Positions 2,962-35,130 of a stretch of 64,000 bases of DNA are shown piece by piece (the stretch's first letter is position 1; every line of letters starts with the position of its first letter). A program made the position numbers and the translations under genes. This DNA is from Pseudohaliea sp. (GTDB taxonomy: Bacteria > Pseudomonadota > Gammaproteobacteria > Pseudomonadales > Halieaceae). Under the pieces are notes generated by a model. The model was not told where the DNA came from. It searched no databases and saw nothing but the letters and a program-made list of their open reading frames with translations. The DNA lies in NCBI RefSeq assembly GCF_040217025.1, contig NZ_JAVJOA010000001.1:104528-168527 (forward strand). The letters run 5' to 3'.

Positions 2962-4569
<1,608 letters not shown>

Positions 4570-4590
<21 letters not shown>

Positions 4591-5235
4591 GGTTTCCCTG
4601 GGCTGGCGATCGTTCGAGCAGCCGGTCTCGCCGTCCTCGCAGCCGTTCGCGGGTGCTTCCGGCGCGGTGGCGGGCAGCGCCGGCAGCACCGCCGGGCGCA
4701 CGCCGGCCTCGCGCAGGTCGGTAAAGCGGCGCCACGCTTCGCGGTTCCCCGCCATGGCAGCGCGTGCATACCAGGCGGCGGCAACCGGCAGGTCCTTTTC
4801 GACGCCGCTGCCCTGCTCGTAGGAGTAGGCCAGGTTCACCTGCGCGGGAAGATGCCCGCGCTCCGCCGCGGCGCGAAACAGGCGCACCGTCTCCTCGAGG
4901 TCCTGCTCCACGCCGCGGCCGTCGAGGTAGAGCAGCGCGAGGTTGTACTCGGCGTCGGCCAGCCCCTGCGCGGCGGCGCGGCGATACCAGCGCGCCGCCG
5001 TCGCCGCGTCGCGAGCGACGCCCTGTCCCCGCTCGTGGGCGAGGCCCACGGCGAACTGCGCGCGGGCCTGTCCCGCCTCGGCGAGCGGCAGCCACTGCGC
5101 AAGCGCCGCCGCATGCTCGCCCCGCTGCCAGGCCGCCTCGCCGGCCGCGTAGTCCTCCGCAGCCGCGCCGGACGCCAGCACCGCCAGCAGCAGCGCTGCC
5201 AGCCAGCGGCCTTCAGTCGATCCTTTCAAGAGCAC
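4570..5235 (-). CDS. Sel1/TPR-like repeat protein, exported
   Basis: Repeated AxxWYRRAAxQGxAxAQxNLAxxY Sel1 units and a signal-like RWLAALLLAVLASGAAA. The start is GTG 5235 or TTG 5229. The Arg/Gly-rich N-terminal part of the track ORF is rejected. Confidence 0.8.
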
Positions 5236-22100: not shown

Positions 22101-22583
22101 ATGGATTTCAGCTACAGCCCACGCGTCGAAGCCCTGCGCCAGCAGCTCTGGCAGTTCATGGACCGTTACATTCTCCCGCGGCTCGGGGCCTGGCGCGCGG
22201 AGGTAAGCGCCGGGCAGTACCCGGTGTCCTTCATGGAGGACCTGAAGGAACTCGCCCGCGACGAGGGGCTGTGGAACCTGTTCCTGCCCTCCCTGAAAGA
22301 CGGAGAGCCCGGCACGCGCCTCAGCAACCTCGAGTATGCGCCGCTCGCCGAGATCATGGGCCGCGTGCCCTGGGCCTCGGAGGTGTTCAACTGCAACGCG
22401 CCGGACACGGGCAACATGGAGGTGCTGCACATGTTCGGCAGCGAGGCCCAGAAAGCGCACTGGCTCGAGCCGCTGATGCGCGCTGAGACGCGCTCCGCCT
22501 TCGCCATGACCGAGGTCGCGCTGGAGCTGAAGCAGCAACAGGAACAGCTCGACCGGGTCAGCGCCTATCTCGCCGGCGCCTGA
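22101..22583 (+). pseudogene. Truncated acyl-CoA dehydrogenase (N-terminal about 145 aa of a FadE/ACAD10-like enzyme)
   Basis: MDFSYSPRVEALRQQLWQFM ... LEYAPLAEIMGR ... FNCNAPDTGNMEVL ... RSAFAMTE matches ACAD N-terminal domains. It then diverges (VALELKQQQEQLDRV...) and stops. The middle and C-terminal domains are absent, and the 3' end overlaps the convergent acpH. Confidence 0.75.
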
Positions 22584-23161
22584 ACCCCTTCTGCGGCGAT
22601 CGCCGCCTGGACGTCGGCGAAGACCAGCAGGAAGCACGCCTCAAGGCCCGCCTCTTCGCTGGCCACCGTGTCCACGAGAGCCGCCACCGGCAGCGGCCGC
22701 CGGCGCCGTTCGGCAAGCCGTTCCAGCACGGCGGCGACGCCCTCGAGGGTCTCGTAGGCGCGCAGCCACTGCGCGTCCGCCCAGGCCGGCCCCAGGCTCG
22801 CAAAACCCGCGGGCAGCCAGGGGCGGTACTCGTGGATGACCCGGTAGACCGCCTGGCGGAACGGTTCCAGGGGCTCCGCGGCAAAGCGATGCCAGTGGCG
22901 ACACAGAAAGTAGTCAAAAGCGATGTCCAGGGCCACGCCCGCGAAACGCCTCTGGCCTGCGGGGAAAACGGCCAGGGCCTCGCCATAGGCGTCGTGTGCG
23001 TCGGTCAGCGCATCGACCCGGCGGTGCCGGCGGACACCGGCCGCAACGCGCGGGTGCAGCGCCTGCCCCTCGAGCGGGCCCTTGACATGGTCGCCGGCGA
23101 CATTGCCGATCAGCGCGCCCGGGTCGGGCTGGGCAAGCAGGGCGTGGGCGAGGTAGTTCAC
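22565..23161 (-). CDS. acpH: Acyl carrier protein phosphodiesterase
   Basis: GTG start giving VNYLAHALLA. HRRVDALTD, DIAFDYFLCRHW and AQWLRAYE align with my recollection of E. coli AcpH (HRRIDVLTD, DVMWDHFLSRHW, EQWLVRYR). Confidence 0.85.
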   Translation of the reverse strand: MNYLAHALLAQPDPGALIGNVAGDHVKGPLEGQALHPRVAAGVRRHRRVDALTDAHDAYGEALAVFPAGQRRFAGVALDIAFDYFLCRHWHRFAAEPLEPFRQAVYRVIHEYRPWLPAGFASLGPAWADAQWLRAYETLEGVAAVLERLAERRRRPLPVAALVDTVASEEAGLEACFLLVFADVQAAIAAEGVQAPAR

Positions 23162-23174
23162 GAGGAACCCGCGC

Positions 23175-24311
23175 TCAGGCGACGCCCGCCGCGCGCAGCG
23201 CCTCCAGCGCCCGGTCGATGTCCGGCTCATCGTTGTAGATGTGCGGCGACAGGCGGAAGCCCAGGGCCCGCCGATCCACCTGTACGTCGGCGGCGGCGAA
23301 GGCATCGGCCACGCTGTCGTTGGCGCTGCCGAAATCGAGGATCACCGTCCCGCTGCGCGCGTCCGGATCCGCCGGAGAGACGCGGCCTTCGGCGGGCACG
23401 CCCGCGCGCAGCCGGTCGCCCAGGGCAAGGTTGTGGCCGCGGATGCGGGTCAGGCCGATCTCCTGCAGGCGCTCGATGCTGTGCGCCGCAATCGCGTAGG
23501 GAGCGATCGACGGCGTGCCGCCCCAGAAACGCAAGGCTCCCGGGTGGTAGCGGAAGTCATGGATGTCGAAGGCAAACGGGTCTGCGTGGGAGAACCAGCC
23601 GACCGCATCCGGCTCGCAGCGCTCGACCAGCGCCGGGGCTACCCAGAGGAAACCGGCACCCGGCCCGCCGCAGAGCCACTTCACGCAGGAGCCGAGCAGA
23701 AAGTCCGCGCCGATGGCCCGCACGTCGACCGGCAGGATGCCCACCGCCTGCGCCGCATCCACGACGCTGAGCGCACCGGCCTCGCGGGCGGCTGCGCAGA
23801 CGGCCTGCACCGGCACCTGGACGCCCGTGTTCGACTGCACCTGCGTCACCAGCACGAGCGCCGTGTCGTCGCCAAGCGCTGCCCGCCAGGCCGCCGGGTC
23901 GCGCTCGTCGACAGCCGCCGGTAGAAAGCGCGGCGCGAGGCCGAGACTGCGCGCCCGCTCTGCCACAAAGCCCAGGGAGGGGAAGGCGCGCTCGCTGAGC
24001 AGGATTTCCCGGCGCGTGGTGAGGCCGGGCACACACTGGAGCACCCGCGCAAAGCCGGTGGAAACGTCCGGTTGCGGGCAGAGGTCGTCACCGCGCGCGC
24101 CCAGCAGCTCGCCCAGCGCGGCCCGAAAGCGCTCCACCGCCTGCAGCCAGGCGGGCCAGGGTTCGCCGGCGCCGCCCGCCCAGGGATCGTAGAACGCCGC
24201 CGCGAAGGCCTCCCGGCTATCCACCGGCGGTCGACCGACGGAATGGTTGAGCAGGTAGGTACCCGGGCCAAGATCAAAACGGTCGCGCAGGGCCGAGGCT
24301 TCCGGGCTCAT
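23175..24311 (-). CDS. Kynureninase-family PLP-dependent hydrolase (aminotransferase class V fold)
   Basis: DFLLGSCVKWLCGGPGAGFLWV matches the kynureninase PLP-lysine segment (CxYKYLNGGPGA). 378 aa. The start overlaps the upstream stop (ATGA). Confidence 0.75.
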   Translation of the reverse strand: MSPEASALRDRFDLGPGTYLLNHSVGRPPVDSREAFAAAFYDPWAGGAGEPWPAWLQAVERFRAALGELLGARGDDLCPQPDVSTGFARVLQCVPGLTTRREILLSERAFPSLGFVAERARSLGLAPRFLPAAVDERDPAAWRAALGDDTALVLVTQVQSNTGVQVPVQAVCAAAREAGALSVVDAAQAVGILPVDVRAIGADFLLGSCVKWLCGGPGAGFLWVAPALVERCEPDAVGWFSHADPFAFDIHDFRYHPGALRFWGGTPSIAPYAIAAHSIERLQEIGLTRIRGHNLALGDRLRAGVPAEGRVSPADPDARSGTVILDFGSANDSVADAFAAADVQVDRRALGFRLSPHIYNDEPDIDRALEALRAAGVA

Positions 24312-25477
24312 GCCAGGCTCTCCCGCAGCCGCCGGATATCGGGGTGGCGCGAGGGGATATCCTCGCGGTCGGCCGCCTGGCGCAGGTCCCGCAGTCTCGC
24401 CAGCGCGCGCATGAGCACCGGCAGCGGCGGCCCGCTCGCGGTGAGGTTGTCCTGGTGCTGCTCGCCGATATGCTCGGCCGGCTTCTCGATGAACTTCGCC
24501 ACCAGCTGGTCGTGGTGCTGTGCCGCCGTCTGCCCATGCAGTTCGCAGACCTCGAGGAACAGGGCGAGGTTCTCCCGGCAGGGTGACGCCCGGCGCGCCG
24601 CCTCCGGCAGGTCGAGAAAATCATCCATCAGGCTGCGCCGGCGCATGCAGTCGCGGAGGATGACCTGGTCCTCGGGCATCATGTAGAGGAACTTGTCCAC
24701 GAGCAGCTGCGAGTAGTACGCATGGTCGGCACGGCAGAGGCCGAGGAGCATGTCGATGACGTTGATGCCTGCGAAGTCACCCGCGTTGGCGCCGCGGTAC
24801 ACGTGCTGGGCGACCCGGTGCGGCTTGAAGTAGGGGCGCACGCAGTAAAAGAAGCGGTCCGTGTCGAGCTCGGCGAAGAGACGCTCATTGGAAGCGACCA
24901 CACCGGCCAGCGCGCTCTTCGCCATGCGCAGGAGGTCCGCGGTCACCGGGTGCCGCACGCCCAGGGGCAGACTGCGCAGCAGCGCATCGGCCGCGGCCTT
25001 GTAACCGAGGATGCCGCGCGTGTTGTAGTCGGTGAACAGGTACTCGTCGCGGAGCGTGGTGAAGCTCTTGTAGCGGCCATCCACGGCGCGGTTGTGGGTG
25101 GTGAGGTGGCTGGTGGCAAAGCGCGGCGTCACGCCCAGGCTGGCGCCGAGCTGCAGGGCCAGGGCCGAGGCCTCGGGCAGCCCGCCATCCTTCGCGTCCT
25201 GGTCCGCCGCACCGTGGCGGGCACAGGCGGCCATGAACAGGCCGACGTTGCCGAGCAGGTCGAAGCCCGCATCGAAGCCCTCGTCCGTGTTGCCCTCGGC
25301 CAGCAGGCGGGCGACGTGTTCGTTGCCCTCGACCTTGAGCCGGGCCTTCAGGTCCTCCCCGACCCCGGCGACCTGTGCGCGGTCTGCCTGCGCGAAATAG
25401 GCTTCTTCGAGCCGTGTATTGAGTTCCGCAAAGGTGCTGCGAATCCAGTGGTCGAAGCGTTCGGCGTTGGTGGTCAT
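24308..25477 (-). CDS. PrnB/IDO-like haem-dependent aromatic oxygenase family protein (DUF1864-like)
   Basis: RFFYCVRPYFKPHRVAQHVYRGANAGDFAG resembles the PrnB segment [21 protein letters not shown] as I recall it. All-helical composition. Start at the internal ATG (MTTNAERF). Confidence 0.6.
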   Translation of the reverse strand: MTTNAERFDHWIRSTFAELNTRLEEAYFAQADRAQVAGVGEDLKARLKVEGNEHVARLLAEGNTDEGFDAGFDLLGNVGLFMAACARHGAADQDAKDGGLPEASALALQLGASLGVTPRFATSHLTTHNRAVDGRYKSFTTLRDEYLFTDYNTRGILGYKAAADALLRSLPLGVRHPVTADLLRMAKSALAGVVASNERLFAELDTDRFFYCVRPYFKPHRVAQHVYRGANAGDFAGINVIDMLLGLCRADHAYYSQLLVDKFLYMMPEDQVILRDCMRRRSLMDDFLDLPEAARRASPCRENLALFLEVCELHGQTAAQHHDQLVAKFIEKPAEHIGEQHQDNLTASGPPLPVLMRALARLRDLRQAADREDIPSRHPDIRRLRESLA

Positions 25478-25568
25478 GCGGGGATTATACGTGTGAAGCA
25501 CCGTGGGAGCTGTATCCTCCGCCCCGGCGGCAAACTTGCACGGTGAGCCGAAGATGATCACCTACGGA

Positions 25569-25584: not shown

Positions 25585-25617
25585 CATTCTTCGCATAGCA
25601 TGGAAGGGGAACGCAGC

Positions 25618-25896
25618 ATGAGCACGACAACGATTCGCCTGCCGGAACAACTCAAGAAACGCCTTGGTGAGGCGGCGCGGAAGGCAGGCCTGACGCCCCA
25701 TGCCCTGATCATCCAGGCCATCGCGGAACGTGTCGACGCCGAGGAAAAGCAAGGGAGTTTCATCGCCGAGGCGGAAGCGCGCTACGATAACCTTGTCTCG
25801 ACGGGCGAGGCCATTTCCTGGCCGGAGATGCGTAACTACCTCGAAAACCGCCGCGCCGGCAAACGCACCAGGCGGCCTCGCACTCGCAAGCTGTAG
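25618..25896 (+). CDS. Ribbon-helix-helix (CopG/ParD-like) antitoxin
   Basis: MSTTTIRLPEQLKKRLGEAARKAGLTPHALIIQAIAERV is an RHH motif. GGAAGGGGA RBS. It lies 16 nt upstream of the toxin gene. Confidence 0.8.
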   Translation: MSTTTIRLPEQLKKRLGEAARKAGLTPHALIIQAIAERVDAEEKQGSFIAEAEARYDNLVSTGEAISWPEMRNYLENRRAGKRTRRPRTRKL

Positions 25897-25912
25897 CCCG
25901 GCCCGGGAAACA

Positions 25913-26206
25913 GTGGCCCGCATCGAACTGGCACCAGAGGTCGGCGACGATATCGAGCGCATTCTGCAGCATCTGGAGGACCACGACGCCGCCCATCTCC
26001 AGCAGAGACTGCGCGAACTGATTGACGCGCTTTCTGTACTGGAGCACAACCCGGCGATCGGACGCCTCGTGCAGGGCGACCTCCGGGAGCTCATCATCGG
26101 TAGCAACGCCCGCGGCTACGTCGCCCTCTATTGCTACATCGCTGCCATTGACACGGTCTTCGTACTGGCGCTGCGAAGCCAGCGGGAGGCCGGCTACTCG
26201 CGCTGA
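25913..26206 (+). CDS. RelE/ParE-family type II toxin
   Basis: GTG start. 97 aa. The pattern DDIERILQHL ... NPAIGR ... LRELII ... YVALYCY ... VFVLALRSQREAGY fits ParE-like toxins. Confidence 0.75.
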   Translation: MARIELAPEVGDDIERILQHLEDHDAAHLQQRLRELIDALSVLEHNPAIGRLVQGDLRELIIGSNARGYVALYCYIAAIDTVFVLALRSQREAGYSR

Positions 26207-28712: not shown

Positions 28713-29519
28713 TCAGGCGGGTTTCCGGGAAATCACGCGGGCCTGTGAGGCGGGATAGCGGCGCACGGCGAGGCAGTCGAGCGACGCGCCCCAGAGCTCC
28801 TTTAGCCTGTCTTCCGTCAGCAGGGCACGCATGTGGATGCCGCGCGCCTTCCCCGTCTCGTGCCAGCCCCGCGCCCGCGACCGCTTCGGCACCTTGCCCG
28901 GGTCGTGCACGGTGACCGAGACGTAGCCGCCGGGCTTGAGGATGCGCTGGAACTCGGCGATCCAGCCCGGTTGCAGGGCCAGGGGAATGTGCGTGAATAC
29001 CGAGGTGGCGATGATCAGGTCGAAGTGGTTGTCCGGGTAGGCAAGCGGCGGCTCCAGCCGGGACATGGACAGGTCTGCATGCGCGCCGAGAGTTTGCTTC
29101 GTCCAGTCGTAGGACACCTGGTTGACGTCACAACCGCAGCGCTCGAGCTTGAGGGGCAGGAAGTGCACGAGCACGCGCCCGGTGCCGAAGCCGAAATCCA
29201 GCATGCGCTCGGCCCGGGTGATATCGAAGCCCAGCTCGGCGAGCTCGGTCAGGTAGCGGTAGGCGTCCATCGCCCCGCTGCCGCGGAAGGTCACCGGGTC
29301 GGCCTTGCTCGGGCCCTGCACCTGGTCCACCACCGCCGTGCTGGGCACGATGGCGGGGTCTGTCTGCAGCGGGTGGAACTCCAGCTCCCCGAGGTCCCGA
29401 TAGACGTTCCGCAGCTTGTCGAGCCAGTCCTCTGCAACCGCGGGCGGCATGAGCTTGACCTTTTTGCGGAACACGCGCTTGACGGCGCGCACGTGCAGGT
29501 TACCGGTATGTACTTCCAT
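28713..29519 (-). CDS. Class I SAM-dependent methyltransferase
   Basis: MLDFGFGTGRVLVHF (motif I) and ILKPGGYV (post-II). The start is uncertain (29450, 29519 or 29651). Codons upstream of 29519 have poorer GC3. Confidence 0.7.
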   Translation of the reverse strand: MEVHTGNLHVRAVKRVFRKKVKLMPPAVAEDWLDKLRNVYRDLGELEFHPLQTDPAIVPSTAVVDQVQGPSKADPVTFRGSGAMDAYRYLTELAELGFDITRAERMLDFGFGTGRVLVHFLPLKLERCGCDVNQVSYDWTKQTLGAHADLSMSRLEPPLAYPDNHFDLIIATSVFTHIPLALQPGWIAEFQRILKPGGYVSVTVHDPGKVPKRSRARGWHETGKARGIHMRALLTEDRLKELWGASLDCLAVRRYPASQARVISRKPA

Positions 29520-29675
29520 GGGCGGGTCGCTCTGCAGCTGTTTTTCTAGGGCCGCAAGCCGGAGCACGCCGGCAGGCCGCGCGGAAGCATACACCAAAAC
29601 AGGCACAGGTGGCCGGTCGCTGTGCTGCCCTGTGCTACGCTGACCCTTCATCTAAGGAGCGCAACCCATACCGCG

Positions 29676-30239
29676 ATGCATCCTCGCCTTTTCGCCAGCC
29701 TGCCCCTTGTGGCGATGCTGTCAGCCCGCACCCGGTCCCCGGCCCCCGGGCGGCGTCGCAGCTGGCTGGCAGCATTCGGTTGCAGTCTCGCGCTATCCGT
29801 TCTCCCGGGAGTCGCCATGGCACAGGCAGAAGCAAAGGCAGCGACAGGGCTGGCCCGTCCATCGATCGACGAAACGGTCATCATGCTCTACTACCGGGAC
29901 CTCGGCCCGGCGTCGGCTTTCTACGGCGACGCGCTCGGGCTGGAGACTATCTACGAGTCCGCGTCGGCAAAACTGTTCCGCCTGACGTCGACGGCGGTCG
30001 TCGGCATCGTGCGGGAGGGTGAGCAGGCCTACCACCCGGCTCGCGAGGAGAACGCGGTCATGCTCAGCATCGTAACGGCCGACGTGGACGCGTGGTACGA
30101 ACGCCTGCGGGACCGCGGCGATATCGAGATCCTGAAGCCCGTTGCGAACAGCACGGACAACCCGATTCGCGCCTTCCTGGTCGCTGACCCCGGGGGGTAC
30201 ACGGTGGAGTTCTTCAGCTGGCTGAACGAACGGCCCTGA
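29676..30239 (+). CDS. VOC (glyoxalase/bleomycin-resistance fold) protein with N-terminal export signal, possibly Tat
   Basis: GRRRSWLAAFGCSLALSVLPGVAMA is followed by a VOC-like domain (MLYYRDLGPASAFYGDALGLE ... FLVADPGGYTVEFF). Confidence 0.7.
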   Translation: MHPRLFASLPLVAMLSARTRSPAPGRRRSWLAAFGCSLALSVLPGVAMAQAEAKAATGLARPSIDETVIMLYYRDLGPASAFYGDALGLETIYESASAKLFRLTSTAVVGIVREGEQAYHPAREENAVMLSIVTADVDAWYERLRDRGDIEILKPVANSTDNPIRAFLVADPGGYTVEFFSWLNERP

Positions 30240-30373: not shown

Positions 30374-30841
30374 ATGCGCTTGAAATTCCTTTGCAAAACA
30401 CACCGTCACTCACTGCTCGAAGACACGGAAGCGGCCCGATCGCTGTGGCTCGGCCTCTGTGACCAAATGCAGGCAGAACCGGCAGTCCCCACACCGCAGC
30501 GCGTGCGGGCTGCCGGCACCGCGCTGGAGGCGGCGGGCATCTACCTCATGGCCAACCCGGTGGCCGATGCCGGCCTTCTGCACCGCTACCACGAGACGGC
30601 ACAGCAGCTCATCGAGCTGCTGGTGCAGCTACGCGAAACACGGCTGGCCATCGTCGTGATCTCCGGTGCCAGTGCCCTGGTCGAACACCTCGCCCGCAAC
30701 GGCGCTGACCGCGAGGCCGCCCTCGCCGTCTGCCGCCGGCTGACGCTGCAGGGCATGGGCCGCATCGAGCAGAGTGGCCGCCACAGGCCGGCGACCGGCG
30801 CGCAGCGCCCGGCCATGGTGCGCACTGCCACCGTCCACTGA
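30374..30841 (+). CDS. Hypothetical helical protein, no recognised family
   Basis: 155-aa ORF with GC-rich third positions through most of its length. No motif recognised. Confidence 0.55.
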   Translation: MRLKFLCKTHRHSLLEDTEAARSLWLGLCDQMQAEPAVPTPQRVRAAGTALEAAGIYLMANPVADAGLLHRYHETAQQLIELLVQLRETRLAIVVISGASALVEHLARNGADREAALAVCRRLTLQGMGRIEQSGRHRPATGAQRPAMVRTATVH

Positions 30842-30867: not shown

Positions 30868-31710
30868 TCACCCGGCGCGCTGCGTCTCCCCGAAGGTGGC
30901 CCCGGCGACCATGAACGCCTCGTAGTCATCGAGCAGCTCGGGGCGCTCGAAATGCAGGAAGTGGCCCACGCCGTCGACCAGCAGGCATTGGCAATCCGGT
31001 ATCATCCGCTCGGCGAGCCACATGTCGTCGAGGTCGATGATGCGGTCCTCGGCGCCGTTGACGATGAGCGTTCGCGCGCGGATGCGGGACAAGTCCACGG
31101 TTTCCTGAAGGTGGCCAAGCTTCAGGATGTTCCGGCAGTGCTCGTAGAACACGTCGGCATTGTCGTCGCTCAGGTTGGCGAACTGCGCGGTAATCTGGCG
31201 CTTGTAGGTCGGACCGATCTGCTGGCCGAACATGTCGATGATGAGGTCCGCACCCGCGGCGTAGTCGCGCGCATCGTAGAGCGCCTGTGCATGGGCGACG
31301 ATACCCTCCATCACCGCATTGGGCTTCATGCCGAAGCTGCTCAGCACCAGCTGGTGCACCGCCTCCGGGTAGCGGGCCGCATACGCGGCGGCGATCGCGG
31401 TGCCCCAGCTGCTGCCAGCCAGCGTCAGTGCTCCGCAGGGGGCAGCGTGTTCGACCAGCGCGTGCACTACCTCGAGTTGCTCTTCGACGGTAACGTGCGG
31501 GTTGCCGTGGAGAATGCGCGAGCGGCCAACGCCCGGCATGTCGAAGACGATAACCCGGAAATGGGGCGAGAAACGGCGGGTAATCGAGCGCCACACGGCC
31601 ATGGTCTGCAGCACGCCGCTGACGCAGAGCAATACGTTCGGGTGGTCGCCGTAGACCCGGAAGGGAATCTCGAAGCGACCGTACTGGAGCAGCTGTTTTC
31701 CCGTCTTCAT
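30868..31710 (-). CDS. RhlA/PhaG-family alpha/beta hydrolase-fold 3-hydroxyacyl-ACP acyltransferase-like protein
   Basis: Whole-length similarity to my recollection of P. aeruginosa RhlA and P. putida PhaG: FRVIVFDMPGVGRS, the nucleophile elbow GSSWG (RhlA SASWGG, PhaG SFSWGG), LIVNGAEDRI and GVGHFLHFE (RhlA GTGHFLDLE). Confidence 0.8.
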   Translation of the reverse strand: MKTGKQLLQYGRFEIPFRVYGDHPNVLLCVSGVLQTMAVWRSITRRFSPHFRVIVFDMPGVGRSRILHGNPHVTVEEQLEVVHALVEHAAPCGALTLAGSSWGTAIAAAYAARYPEAVHQLVLSSFGMKPNAVMEGIVAHAQALYDARDYAAGADLIIDMFGQQIGPTYKRQITAQFANLSDDNADVFYEHCRNILKLGHLQETVDLSRIRARTLIVNGAEDRIIDLDDMWLAERMIPDCQCLLVDGVGHFLHFERPELLDDYEAFMVAGATFGETQRAG

Positions 31711-32669
31711 ACCTGCGTTCCTTCCTTTGCCGCCCCGGCGGCGATAAGCGCCTCTGCGCGTCGCGCAGCGCTACGGCATTTCCAGCGGTACCAGGCTTTC
31801 GCAGCCAGGCGATTGGCGAGGCGGTCCAGCGGCGAAGTGACGAGCAGGTTGCGCGCGCTGAGCGCACGCAGCCGGAGCCGGGCCGGCGCCGCACGCAGGG
31901 AGACGCCCATGCCCGCCTCGAGATAGTGGAACTCGTGCCACCACCCCGGCGGCATGTACAGGGCCTGGCCCGGCTCCAGCACCACCTCGAAGCCCGCGGC
32001 ACAAGCAAGGGCGGGAAAGCGGCCGAGGTCCGGGGTGTCTAGATCGACGTAGCTGCGCACGGTACAGGGATGGCGGTAGAGCGCCGTGGAGGCCTCCGGC
32101 GGAAACAGGCGAACCCTTCGCCGGCCGCGGATTACCGCATGGAGCACATGAGCCATGTCGATGTCGAAATGCAGCGGCGTCGTGCTGCCGCGACAGCCGA
32201 AAAAGCTGAACACGAAGCGGCGGGAGAAGCGCAGCCCGACGTCAGGGAGGCAGACATCATCGAGAAGCTCCGGCAGCTGCCGCGAGAGATTGTAGAGAAA
32301 CATGCGCAGGTCGCGCCCGCGGGTCTGGGTCTCCTCGAGGAACGCCGCGAAGCTCATGGTCGCGATGCTGCCCATGTAGTGCCGCCCAGGGGCGCCGAAG
32401 CTGGCGTCGTAGACTCGAACGCTGCGCTGGCCGAAGCGCTCGGCAAGCCGTTCCGGGGTCCAGCGCCGGAAGGCGGGCCAGTCGACAGCGAAGTCATTCA
32501 CGACGACCGGCCGGCCAGCGGCGATCGCCTCGCGCAACGCCGCACCGCCCTCGTGGCTGACCGGCGGAAGCGGCTGCCAGCGAAGCCCGGTGACGCAGGC
32601 CCCCGCCGGTGCTGCGGCGGGCTGGCCGGAAAACACCGACTGTGCCGGGACGCCCTGCGACAGTGTCAC
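31707..32669 (-). CDS. JmjC/cupin-8 domain Fe(II)/2-oxoglutarate oxygenase-like protein
   Basis: VVNDFAVDWPAFRRWTPERL, the HxD motif in TPLHFDID and the distal His in PPGWWHEF. The GTG start overlaps the upstream stop (GTGA), and its stop overlaps the downstream ATG (ATGA). Confidence 0.8.
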   Translation of the reverse strand: MTLSQGVPAQSVFSGQPAAAPAGACVTGLRWQPLPPVSHEGGAALREAIAAGRPVVVNDFAVDWPAFRRWTPERLAERFGQRSVRVYDASFGAPGRHYMGSIATMSFAAFLEETQTRGRDLRMFLYNLSRQLPELLDDVCLPDVGLRFSRRFVFSFFGCRGSTTPLHFDIDMAHVLHAVIRGRRRVRLFPPEASTALYRHPCTVRSYVDLDTPDLGRFPALACAAGFEVVLEPGQALYMPPGWWHEFHYLEAGMGVSLRAAPARLRLRALSARNLLVTSPLDRLANRLAAKAWYRWKCRSAARRAEALIAAGAAKEGTQV

Positions 32670-33307
32670 GGTGACGGCTCCGCGCTCAAGCCGGCCAGCA
32701 GTGCCTCCCGGTCGCAGACCGGGTCCGCGCCGAACCAGATCGACCAGAGCAGCCGGGCAAAGGCGATATCCGCCACCTCGAAAGCTCGCTCGCCGTTGAA
32801 CTCGACCCGCAGGCGTCCACCCTCGAGCCAATAGAAAACCAGCCGGTCGCCGGCCGTGACCCCGCGGTCGATGCCGGCGAGGAACCGCTCGATGGTGTCA
32901 TCGGCCGCCTCAAGCCAGGCAGGCTGCGCATTGCGCCGCAGGCTCTTTGCGAATTCGCTGCGGATCCGCTCCACGCCGAGGTCCCGCTGAAAGTGAAGCA
33001 TCAGCGCCTTGCTGCGGTCATCCGCCAGCACGGCCTCCGGAGTGAGTGCCGGGCGGTCCTCGATCGCAGCATAGTGAGCGATTTCATAGACCCGGAAGAC
33101 GAAAACCACACGCGCGGACTCGCCCGTGAACTGCAGCTGGTGGCGCTCTCCGTCCAGGTGCAGGCTGAGGGCCTGAGGAAACGCCGCAGCCCACACGGTC
33201 TCGCAGGCAAACAACAGAGCGAGGACCGGCAGCGCGCGGAGCGGCCACAAACGGCGGTCTCCCGCGGACCGGCGCGAGGTCGAGGGCGTTGCTAGGGACG
33301 CTACCAT
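32666..33307 (-). CDS. Chalcone-isomerase-like (fatty-acid-binding fold) exported protein
   Basis: Signal peptide ...LRALPVLALLFACETVWA. FRVYEIAHY and the C-terminal FARLLWSIWFGADPVCDREALLAGL match the bacterial Chalcone_3-type pattern. Confidence 0.7.
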   Translation of the reverse strand: MVASLATPSTSRRSAGDRRLWPLRALPVLALLFACETVWAAAFPQALSLHLDGERHQLQFTGESARVVFVFRVYEIAHYAAIEDRPALTPEAVLADDRSKALMLHFQRDLGVERIRSEFAKSLRRNAQPAWLEAADDTIERFLAGIDRGVTAGDRLVFYWLEGGRLRVEFNGERAFEVADIAFARLLWSIWFGADPVCDREALLAGLSAEPSP

Positions 33308-33607: not shown

Positions 33608-34864
33608 GTGCTTCCCGTGTCAAAACTGCGTTTTCCTGTCGCCCTGGTGGCACCGCTGTCGATCTTCGCCGTGGCTGCCGCGAGCAACGCCGAGGTCACG
33701 GTCGGCAACCCCGCAGTAGCCTGTGCCGAGGACCCGGCCTGCATGAACCGGATCCATCCCGCCATACCGATGGTCGCCACGGCGGAGCCGGGGGAGCGCA
33801 TCGTGTTCGTCGGTCGCGATGCCTTCGACCTCTCCCTGGACCCCGACGAACTGTCCAGCGCGCCGGCCATCCCGCGTGAAGGCATCGGCATCGTCCACGC
33901 GCTGACCGGCCCGGTCGCCATTCGTGGGGCACGGGCGGGCGATGTGCTGGCGGTCACCATCGAGGCGCTGGAGCCGGCGGCCGTAGGCTGGACCGAGGCC
34001 GGCCCCTTCGGCTTTGCCGGGGAGCAGTTCGGACAGGACGGGCGCTTCATCGTCTGGCGCATCAATGAGGAATACGCGGTCAGCGATGCGTTACCGGGGG
34101 TGCGTATCCCCAATGCCGCATTCCCCGGCGTCGTGACCACGCTGCCCGGGGAGCGCCTGCTGGCGGAAGTGCTCGAGCGGGAAGGGGAACTGCTGGCACT
34201 GGGCGGCACAGTGCTGCCCCCCGATCCCGTTGAGGCGCAGCCCGCAGCGCTGTGCGGCCCCGGGGGAACGCGGGCTTCCGAGTGCCTGCGCACGATCCCG
34301 CCGAGGGAGCACGGCGGCAACATGGATATCCGCTACATCACCACGGGGACCACCGTCTACCTGCCCTGCCAGATCGATGGCTGCGGCCTGGCGGTGGGTG
34401 ACTTTCACTACGCCCAGGGCGATGGCGAGGTGTCCGGGACGGCCATCGAAATGGGCGGCGAGCTCACCGTGACCACGCGCATTGTGAACGGTGGGCCGGA
34501 CCTGTCCCACGGCCCGCACTATGAAGGTCCCGCGTCGGTGCTGCGCATCCCCTCCGAACGCTTCTATGCGGTCACGGGTTTCCCGCTCAAAGCGCCGGGC
34601 AGCGTTCCCGCGAACATGGCCTACCTGGCTTCGGACCGGGTCGCCGGCCTCTCGAACCTCTCCGCTGATGTTCACCTCGCCGCACGCAACGCGCTGGCTG
34701 CGATGATCGATTACATCGTGACGGAGTACGGCTACGACCGGGCTCAGGCCTACATGATCGCCAGCGTCGCAGTCGATCTGCGGATCGGGCAGCTGGTCGA
34801 CGTGCCGAACGTCGGCGTCACCGCCGTGCTGCCGCTGGACATCTTTACCGGCGAACGGCACTGA
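33608..34864 (+). CDS. Acetamidase/formamidase-family amidohydrolase with signal peptide
   Basis: GNMDIRYITTGTTVYLPCQIDGCGLAVGDFHYAQGDGEVSGTAIE is the FmdA/AmdA core. The N-terminal LRFPVALVAPLSIFAVAAASNA looks like a Sec signal. Confidence 0.85.
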   Translation: MLPVSKLRFPVALVAPLSIFAVAAASNAEVTVGNPAVACAEDPACMNRIHPAIPMVATAEPGERIVFVGRDAFDLSLDPDELSSAPAIPREGIGIVHALTGPVAIRGARAGDVLAVTIEALEPAAVGWTEAGPFGFAGEQFGQDGRFIVWRINEEYAVSDALPGVRIPNAAFPGVVTTLPGERLLAEVLEREGELLALGGTVLPPDPVEAQPAALCGPGGTRASECLRTIPPREHGGNMDIRYITTGTTVYLPCQIDGCGLAVGDFHYAQGDGEVSGTAIEMGGELTVTTRIVNGGPDLSHGPHYEGPASVLRIPSERFYAVTGFPLKAPGSVPANMAYLASDRVAGLSNLSADVHLAARNALAAMIDYIVTEYGYDRAQAYMIASVAVDLRIGQLVDVPNVGVTAVLPLDIFTGERH

Positions 34865-35040: not shown

Positions 35041-35130
35041 TGGCGGAGGGGGTGGGATTTGAACCCACGGTACGCTCGCGCGTACACCTGATTTCGAGTC
35101 AGACCCGTTCGACCACTCCGGCACCCCTCC
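35041..35130 (-). tRNA. tRNA-Ser (anticodon CGA)
   Basis: The reverse complement folds as GGAGGGG acceptor, D-arm GCCGGAGTGGTCGAACGG and anticodon stem-loop TCTGA-CT CGA AA-TCAGG. It also has a long variable arm, TPsiC GGTTCAAATCC and an encoded CCA. Confidence 0.93.

Follow-up and report, generated by a model that had tools for sequence, protein, structure and literature searches.

Three described enzymes serve as comparisons for the hydrolase considered here. PhaG, a thioesterase/CoA transacylase for 3-hydroxyacyl chains on acyl carrier protein (ACP) in the polyhydroxyalkanoate (PHA) synthesis of Pseudomonas, accepts 3-hydroxyacyl-ACP and delivers monomeric hydroxy acids. Its clade-mate RhlA, the 3-(3-hydroxydecanoyloxy)decanoate synthase of Pseudomonas aeruginosa, joins two 3-hydroxyacyl-ACPs by condensation and acts both as a thioesterase and as an acyltransferase (PDB 8ik2, title). 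OlsI, an alpha/beta-hydrolase O-acyltransferase of planctomycete ornithine-lipid synthesis, makes an acyloxyacyl ester (PMC12493201), and the fold has therefore been recruited more than once for lipid O-acylation. We analysed a 64,000-nucleotide stretch of the chromosome of Pseudohaliea sp. (Halieaceae), here called the window, in which three minus-strand open reading frames (ORFs) spanning 30868-33307 encode a predicted exported protein of the chalcone isomerase (CHI) fold, a JmjC oxygenase and an alpha/beta hydrolase (g1, g2 and g3, respectively). For this trio the analysis established how the genes are arranged, which folds and catalytic residues the proteins have, to which families they are related and that their linkage extends across phyla. 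All three proteins are members of known superfamilies, and together they form a real, widespread and undescribed module assembled from known folds, in which the oxygenase is paired with a hydrolase family that is sister to RhlA and PhaG.

The three genes constitute one conserved, translationally coupled unit. The stop codon of g1 overlaps the start codon of g2 within GTGA and that of g2 overlaps the start of g3 within ATGA, as had been claimed in an earlier reading of the same DNA (the original prediction), and every motif quoted there was found in the sequence (LALLFACETVWA, FARLLWSIWFGADP, TPLHFDID, GWWHEF, FRVIVFDMPGVGRS, GSSWG, NGAEDRI and GVGHFLHFE). Shine-Dalgarno-like sequences precede both downstream genes, with GGAG located 8 nt before the GTG start of g2 and AGGAAGGA ahead of the start of g3. 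In an NCBI assembly of Pseudohaliea sp. the trio proteins are consecutive and are labelled 'alpha/beta hydrolase' (WP_350033523.1, g3), 'cupin-like domain-containing protein' (WP_350033524.1, g2, with the identical GTG start) and 'chalcone isomerase family protein' (WP_350033526.1, g1). Because NCBI chooses a later TTG at 33250 for g1, giving a protein of 194 aa, its start is ambiguous by 19 codons (33307 or 33250); the hydrophobic signal segment is retained under both candidates. The nearest named species is Pseudohaliea rubra, whose g3 is 88% identical.

Public annotations of the homologues are generic (for example 'pimeloyl-ACP methyl ester carboxylesterase', 'cupin-like domain-containing protein', 'hypothetical protein'). 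NCBIfam holds no specific model for g1 or g2, and for g3 it returned only the generic hydrolases PcaD, MenH, BioH and OlsI, all below threshold. PADLOC gave zero matches for the trio, which is therefore not a known defence system, and Rfam, promoter and terminator scans of the operon region found nothing informative apart from a tRNA. The claim that no pathway with this trio had been characterised agrees with the papers searched, in which no description of either the pair or the trio was found.

The association of g2 with g3 proved to be close to invariable. A genome scan limited to one genome per species yielded 59 loci with a g3 of at least 44% identity; two of these end at a contig edge, and g2 lies beside g3 in all 57 that could be assessed. 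Where g2 precedes g3 in these genomes, most loci show a 4-nt or 1-nt overlap. The hosts include Halieaceae, many other metagenome-assembled genomes (MAGs) of Pseudomonadales, Wenzhouxiangellaceae, 'Ca. Azophilus', Nitrospiraceae and Binatia. When metagenomes were scanned with distant members of the family as seeds (approximately 40% identity to g3), 80 loci were returned, and here g2 is carried by 54 of the 59 assessable ones in the reversed order, g3 then g2. The module recurs in more than 100 genomes and metagenome contigs from several phyla, a degree of conservation that rules out chance adjacency, and the occurrence of both gene orders indicates that selection keeps the g2-g3 pair together.

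At 29 of the 59 genome loci the pair is joined by a CHI-like gene, in four arrangements: g1-g2-g3 in Halieaceae, g2-g1-g3 in two gammaproteobacterial MAGs and Binatia, g1-g3-g2 in Nitrospiraceae, and a CHI gene convergent downstream of g3 in Wenzhouxiangellaceae. It is also present at 24 metagenome loci, with four more cut at the contig end. Synteny of the trio in other genomes, which had been proposed as a check, was thus borne out by genome and metagenome loci alike. One apparent fusion of g2 to g3 (P0123, 546 aa) was discarded as a gene-calling artefact, being an out-of-frame cupin read-through joined to the hydrolase and no Rosetta-stone fusion.

The hydrolase g3 belongs to Pfam Abhydrolase_1 (6e-25), and RhlA is its closest solved relative by three methods. 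The protein sequence matches RhlA (PDB 8ik2) at 3e-19, with PlaF second at 5e-14; the family profile places RhlA first at 4e-25 against 4e-18 for the runner-up; and the AlphaFold model (predicted local distance difference test score, pLDDT, 84) gives RhlA as the top fold match, with an E value of 3e-19 and template modelling (TM) scores of 0.75/0.77, the next match standing at 6e-16. The alignment with RhlA extends over nearly the full length (residues 25-256 of 280) at 26% identity over 234 residues, and identity to a representative of the PhaG clade is likewise approximately 26%. Both g3 and RhlA are cytoplasmic and adopt an alpha/beta-hydrolase fold with a cap, with the catalytic triad placed in xSWG, NGxxD and GHFL; the SWG, NGxxD and GHFL motifs are common to g3, RhlA and PhaG. 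Conservation of the triad is complete: Ser101, Asp222 and His250 do not vary among 39 diverse homologues, whose identity falls as low as 29%.

An exhaustive search of 1.8 billion cluster representatives showed that g3 defines a discrete family. At E<1e-30 it comprises 46 clusters with 30-61% identity to g3, the full-length ones reaching at most 56%. Representatives of the RhlA/PhaG type appeared in the g3 search only at 64-75 bits, whereas the mean BLASTP score within the g3 family is approximately 164 bits. The relation is reciprocal, since the best matches of RhlA, PhaG and their representatives outside their own family all belong to the g3 family; of the RhlA sequence used, residues 28-257 were confirmed by the PDB alignment. 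In a neighbour-joining (NJ) tree of 92 sequences (capped distances, 100 bootstraps), RhlA and PhaG were monophyletic in 100/100 replicates and stood as sister to the whole g3 family, not around g3. The joint RhlA/PhaG and g3 clade was recovered in 98/100 replicates with at most one other alpha/beta-hydrolase representative beyond four pre-set intermediates, and in the main tree the only additional members were five intermediate sequences. This makes g3 part of a new sister family rather than an orthologue of RhlA. The placement of this gene with RhlA and PhaG rather than with BioH or other esterases, as first proposed, therefore stands by sequence, profile, fold and NJ sister placement; its description as an RhlA/PhaG-type enzyme holds only in the sense of a sister group, given the 26% identity and the separate family.

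The surroundings of g3 also set it apart from the described enzymes. RhlA works with the rhamnosyltransferases RhlB and RhlC, whereas the partner of g3 is a JmjC oxygenase, and no rhamnosyltransferase (rhlB/C), PHA synthase or CoA ligase was found around the trio in the window or at those related loci that were inspected. On the NCBIfam model of OlsI, g3 reaches 42 bits (cut-off 385 bits), in the N-terminal part only, and OlsH, the GH3 partner of OlsI, is absent beside g3.

The oxygenase g2 matches Pfam Cupin_8 (3e-32, 112.9 bits, cut-off 27.4) and, just above the cut-off of 22, JmjC_2 (23.4 bits). Its best solved relatives are JMJD5 (2e-26), FIH (6e-22) and TYW5 (5e-13). With these proteins (FIH and JMJD5 being human protein hydroxylases) g2 shares the Cupin_8 double-stranded beta-helix and the HxD...H iron triad; it differs from them in being bacterial and obligately paired with an alpha/beta hydrolase. 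The JmjC facial triad that had been recognised in gene 2 was upheld, with H167, D169 and H245 invariant in 58 family members from several phyla, and Thr164 is kept at the position of FIH T196, judged from a distant alignment to FIH. The same 58 sequences bear on the C-terminal segment, which had been described as an unusual basic tail of approximately 70 aa. Residues D282, R283, N286, W293, W296 and K297 are kept in 95% or more of them, and the segment aligns weakly with the C-terminal part of FIH, which likewise carries a C-terminal helical extension. The tail thus belongs to the structure of the enzyme rather than being an unusual add-on. In the plasmid collection, the nearest g2-like cupin (Fulvitalea, 36% identity) stands alone beside sulfatases, and the nearest g3-like hydrolase (Halomonas, 27% identity) comes from a record that carries no annotation; the two matches were not informative.

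The protein g1 matches Pfam Chalcone_3 (2e-18, 67.4 bits, cut-off 27). Neither its sequence nor its family profile has a sequence-level match among PDB structures. Its AF2 model (pLDDT 78) matches the structures of CHIL, CHI, Aim18p and the plant fatty-acid-binding proteins (FAPs) AtFAP1/3 with a Foldseek probability of 1.00, TM scores of 0.5-0.6 and 12-17% identity. The fold search fails to separate FAP from CHI, CHIL or the heme-binding members. AtFAP1 and AtFAP3 (PDB 4doo, 4dol) and the fungal hemoproteins Aim18p and Aim46p resemble g1 in their CHI fold (TM approximately 0.55-0.6); they are unlike it in sequence, and g1 is a bacterial protein predicted to be exported through the Sec pathway. 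Alignment of 28 homologues identified conserved residues including R66, Y74, H78, Y79 and K100, among which R66, His78 and Y79 are invariant, as is Cys198. R66 and Y79 lie 13 residues apart, a spacing that may correspond to that of the carboxylate-clamp Arg/Tyr pair of AtFAP1. The CHI fold binds fatty acids, chalcones or heme, and the hemoprotein Aim18p, which has this fold, ranks high among the structures matched by g1 (PMC9996372). Because chalcones and heme are also bound, the 'fatty-acid-binding signature' originally assigned to gene 1 is not diagnostic; its CHI-like character was confirmed, its specificity for fatty acids was not.

Each of the 28 aligned g1 homologues has a hydrophobic stretch at its N terminus, and in most of them a small-x-Ala site comes next. 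In the window the signal segment ends at 33203-33214 (residues 32-35, LFAC) in a lipobox-like L-(F/L)-A-C, which is also present in the two closest relatives; the Cys is absent from most other g1 homologues. On the strength of this lipobox-like Cys, g1 could be a lipoprotein in this lineage.

Two Pseudomonadales species without a CHI gene in the flank carry instead a START-domain gene convergent downstream of g3, and the protein from L004, the copy that was translated, has a signal peptide. START is a fold unrelated to CHI that binds hydrophobic ligands, and by analogy this protein may be a replacement carrier. The presence of two unrelated folds for hydrophobic ligands at the same place, at least one of each with a predicted export signal, points to a hydrophobic product or substrate that reaches the periplasm.

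We favour, at a probability of about 40%, a reading in which acyl chains borne by ACP would be released or condensed, and also hydroxylated, by the two-enzyme module, and the product would pass to a periplasmic carrier. By analogy with RhlA, PhaG and OlsI, g3 would take (3-hydroxy)acyl chains off the acyl carrier protein and would then either free them as acids or esterify one chain onto another. The acyl chain would be hydroxylated by g2, whether still carrier-bound or after its release. The hydroxylated fatty-acyl product would exit the cytoplasm and be held or ferried in the periplasm by the exported CHI-fold g1, a job that the exported START-domain protein at the same position in other lineages may do. 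Substrate, product, order of reactions and the role of the carrier are in each case drawn by analogy. PhaG-type chemistry is a plausible alternative for g3 on the same grounds, and a free hydroxylated 3-hydroxy fatty acid as the product is pure conjecture. A more ambitious proposal would make g2 a hydroxylase directed at lipids or acyl-ACP, a new substrate class for bacterial JmjC enzymes, and the obligate partner of the RhlA/PhaG sister family; jointly they would produce new hydroxylated fatty acids or estolide-type lipids that are exported to a periplasmic CHI-fold or START carrier, and the pathway would be widespread in marine Gammaproteobacteria, Nitrospiraceae and Binatia. In this full form we consider the proposal doubtful.

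Several observations weigh against the favoured reading. All of the chemistry is drawn by analogy, at 26% identity for g3, whose next-best relatives are the ordinary esterases/lipases PlaF, ABHD6 and MGS-M2, and the tree was built by NJ from a divergent alignment with outgroups picked by similarity to g3. JMJD5 and FIH, the nearest characterised relatives of g2, hydroxylate proteins. Three residues that contact 2-oxoglutarate (2OG) in FIH are changed in g2 (Y145 to F124, K214 to R184 and N294 to R259, from the same distant alignment to FIH), and because of these replacements 2OG is a likely but not a certain co-substrate; an Arg of g2 could still bind the 2OG carboxylate. The CHI fold leaves a fatty-acid ligand unspecified (PMC9996372), neither a CHI nor a START gene occurs within 6 kb at about half of the loci with the pair, and genes for ACP, fatty acid synthase, CoA ligase, glycosyltransferases or exporters are not consistently near the pair.

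Some of these points would fit a scavenging or catabolic module, in which g1 binds an external hydrophobic ester or lipid in the periplasm, g3 acts as an esterase or lipase after uptake, and g2 hydroxylates or demethylates the released moiety for degradation. The nearest solved relatives of g3 after RhlA (PlaF, ABHD6, MGS-M2 and a Thermogutta esterase) agree with such a role, as do the marine and sediment heterotrophs that host the module and the variable, catabolic-looking neighbours of the pair: TauD, a metallo-beta-lactamase-fold protein and DUF6817 are encoded upstream of it in five loci, and CoA-transferase III, EthD, TetR and iron-containing alcohol dehydrogenase (Fe-ADH) genes lie near it elsewhere. 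However, no transporter is conserved with the module, the sister group of g3 is the RhlA/PhaG clade and not the esterases, and the module is also found in Nitrospiraceae MAGs of a chemolithoautotrophic type. Tight coupling and a fixed 1:1 pairing across phyla are, moreover, more typical of a two-step biosynthetic unit, and we regard scavenging as unlikely.

The character of g2 raises a different possibility, that of a protein-modification pair in which g2, like FIH and JMJD5, hydroxylates g3, ACP or another protein, and the hydrolase has a role unrelated to lipid synthesis. The best characterised relatives of g2 do hydroxylate Arg and Asn residues of proteins, its conserved C-terminal segment is similar to the corresponding region of FIH, and strict pairing with coupling could reflect an enzyme and its modifier. 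Cupin_8 also holds hydroxylases of non-protein substrates, however, such as the tRNA hydroxylase TYW5; no conserved candidate target residue was identified, and the recurrent exported CHI and START ligand-binding partners would be left unexplained. This makes a protein target for g2 decidedly unlikely.

If g3 were instead a true RhlA-type enzyme, it would make the biosurfactant 3-(3-hydroxyalkanoyloxy)alkanoic acid (HAA) and g2 would only decorate it, which is the strongest form that the original prediction could take. While RhlA is the top match by all three methods and the positions of triad and motifs are common to both proteins, the low identity, the separate clade and the lack of an rhlB/rhlC-type glycosyltransferase nearby argue otherwise. 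PhaG, which shares that sister clade with RhlA, works as a thioesterase/transacylase and does not condense chains, and condensation therefore cannot be assumed for the more distant g3 family; HAA synthesis is in our view very improbable. A heme or tetrapyrrole function, in which g1 binds heme in the periplasm much as the fungal CHI-fold hemoproteins bind it and g2 and g3 act on a tetrapyrrole or quinone, would suit the Aim18p match, the invariant His78 and Cys198 and the Halieaceae, which are often aerobic anoxygenic phototrophs, but it can almost be dismissed since nothing ties g3 to tetrapyrrole enzymes, the adjacent genes include none for heme or bacteriochlorophyll, and many lineages with the module are not known to be phototrophic (for example Nitrospiraceae, Binatia and Wenzhouxiangellaceae).

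Table 1. Coordinates of the trio and its functional sites in the window, and of associated genes at other loci.
Feature	Position	Strand	Remarks
g1	32666..33307	(-)	Predicted exported CHI-fold (Chalcone_3) protein, 213 aa; predicted ligand-binding
g2	31707..32669	(-)	JmjC/Cupin_8 Fe(II)/2-oxoglutarate-type oxygenase, cytoplasmic, 320 aa
g3	30868..31710	(-)	Alpha/beta hydrolase, cytoplasmic, family sister to RhlA/PhaG, 280 aa
GTGA overlap	32666..32669	(-)	g1 stop TGA and g2 start GTG; from the sequence
ATGA overlap	31707..31710	(-)	g2 stop TGA and g3 start ATG; from the sequence
Predicted Sec signal peptide of g1, residues 1-40	33188..33307	(-)	Basic n-region, ALPVLALLFA, VWA/AA cleavage-type site (slash marks the cut); read by eye
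H167-F168-D169 codons, HxD of the g2 metal triad	32163..32171	(-)	Aligns to FIH H199/D201
H245 codon, distal His of g2 within WWHEF	31935..31937	(-)	Aligns to FIH H279
Conserved C-terminal extension of g2, residues ~260-320	31710..31892	(-)	The 'basic tail' of the original prediction
S101 codon of g3, nucleophile in GSSWG	31408..31410	(-)	Aligns with RhlA Ser102 in SASWG
D222 codon of g3, triad acid in NGAEDRI	31045..31047	(-)	Aligns with the Asp of RhlA NGSWDEY
H250 codon of g3, triad base in GVGHFLHFE	30961..30963	(-)	Aligns with the His of RhlA GTGHFLDLE
START genes at other loci	L004 8822-9481 (= L053 6822-7514, same contig); L030 6819-7481		Convergent after g3
Asp_Arg_Hydrox gene at other loci	L026, L027, L031, L033-L036, L040, L042, L044 (~4100-4900); L064	(-) for the first ten

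Other genes recur beside the pair at some loci. LpxO and OlsC set a precedent in bacterial lipids for the Fe/2OG-type hydroxylation of acyl chains that are ester-linked, acting on lipid A and ornithine-lipid acyl chains, respectively. In 11 Pseudomonadales/Gammaproteobacteria MAGs the pair adjoins a gene of their Pfam family, Asp_Arg_Hydrox (2e-48), which encodes a protein with an N-terminal hydrophobic segment; ten of these genes are divergent upstream, and the one in L064 is on the same strand. The protein, from a cupin family other than that of g2, may add another hydroxylase of acyl chains to the pathway, or its position may be a coincidence. No LpxO/OlsC-type gene occurs within approximately 10 kb of the Pseudohaliea trio, the stretch with called genes. 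A patatin-like gene is found near the pair at three Nitrospiraceae loci, and an enoyl-CoA hydratase gene is found at a single locus. These lipid-related neighbours at other loci speak for the favoured reading.

A gene of the uracil-DNA-glycosylase (UDG) superfamily (Pfam UDG, 2.5e-35) lies directly downstream of the Nitrospiraceae pair (L059 8240-8869, with related genes in L056 and L058), and a convergent gene of approximately 169 aa, UDG-like by eye, takes the same position in 11 low-GC marine metagenome loci (L114 7726-8235 and 10 others); no functional connection between the UDG-family gene and the pair was seen. Beyond the neighbours described, nothing is conserved around the pair across the loci. 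Distant g3-like genes that lack g2 (L062, L066, L067, L101, L156, L164 and L165) have unrelated neighbours, namely two-component systems, CheR/CheB, SpoIIE and asparagine synthase, which offer no functional clue.

Two further observations concern individual assemblies. In a 6.6-Mb MAG (L002 7605-7832, L003 2004-2231), g3 is situated amid IS66/DDE transposases and integrases, and only a cupin fragment (residues 181-256) is left upstream of the hydrolase; the pair appears to have been disrupted or mobilised there. A 3.8-kb contig binned in a Klebsiella pneumoniae MAG (L048) carries the pair at approximately 60% identity and, judged by its relatives, is almost certainly a mis-binned marine gammaproteobacterial contig.

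The position of the trio had been called compatible with an accessory region. This idea was rejected: GC content is flat at 0.66-0.69 throughout, no integrase or mobility genes were found in the trio flanks, the trio is present in every Halieaceae locus fetched (20/20 Halieaceae-type loci), and the tRNA-Ser(CGA) gene at 35041-35130, 1.7 kb from g1, is close by only in the closest relatives. The flanks themselves (approximately 28713-30239 and 33608-34864) are a spot of local rearrangement when the window is compared with its closest relative, L006. An FmdA/AmdA formamidase gene has been inserted between the tRNA-Ser(CGA) gene and g1, and genes for a VOC/glyoxalase protein and a methyltransferase, whose positions differ from those in L006, sit between a small conserved ORF and the DPP-IV gene. 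Convergent with g3 lies a 155-aa ORF without a Pfam family (30374-30841, plus strand), which is found at the same position with 71-77% identity in P. rubra and the closest MAG and is not conserved outside the Pseudohaliea lineage. Further away, a ParE-toxin/RHH-antitoxin-like pair with weak or faint Pfam matches stands beside the DPP-IV peptidase gene (approximately 25600-26200; L001 9836-10424), and genes for a PrnB-like protein, a class-V aminotransferase and an ACP phosphodiesterase (ACP_PD) occur in a row approximately 5 kb from the trio (approximately 22500-25500; L001 10565-13477), the tie to ACP being intriguing.

RhlA and PhaG open the routes to rhamnolipid surfactants and to the production of PHA and 3-hydroxy acids, and have so far seemed an isolated family, mostly of Pseudomonas and Burkholderia. 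A large sister family locked to a JmjC oxygenase, and often to an exported CHI-fold protein as well, would suggest that acyl-ACP-derived lipid chemistry has an unexplored branch in bacteria that abound in the sea and in sediments. The JmjC and CHI-fold proteins of bacteria, of which hardly any have been characterised, would gain a testable function, and the module could yield new enzymes for the production of hydroxy fatty acids. Should its function lie outside lipid metabolism, the strict pairing across phyla would still mark a conserved pathway worth solving.

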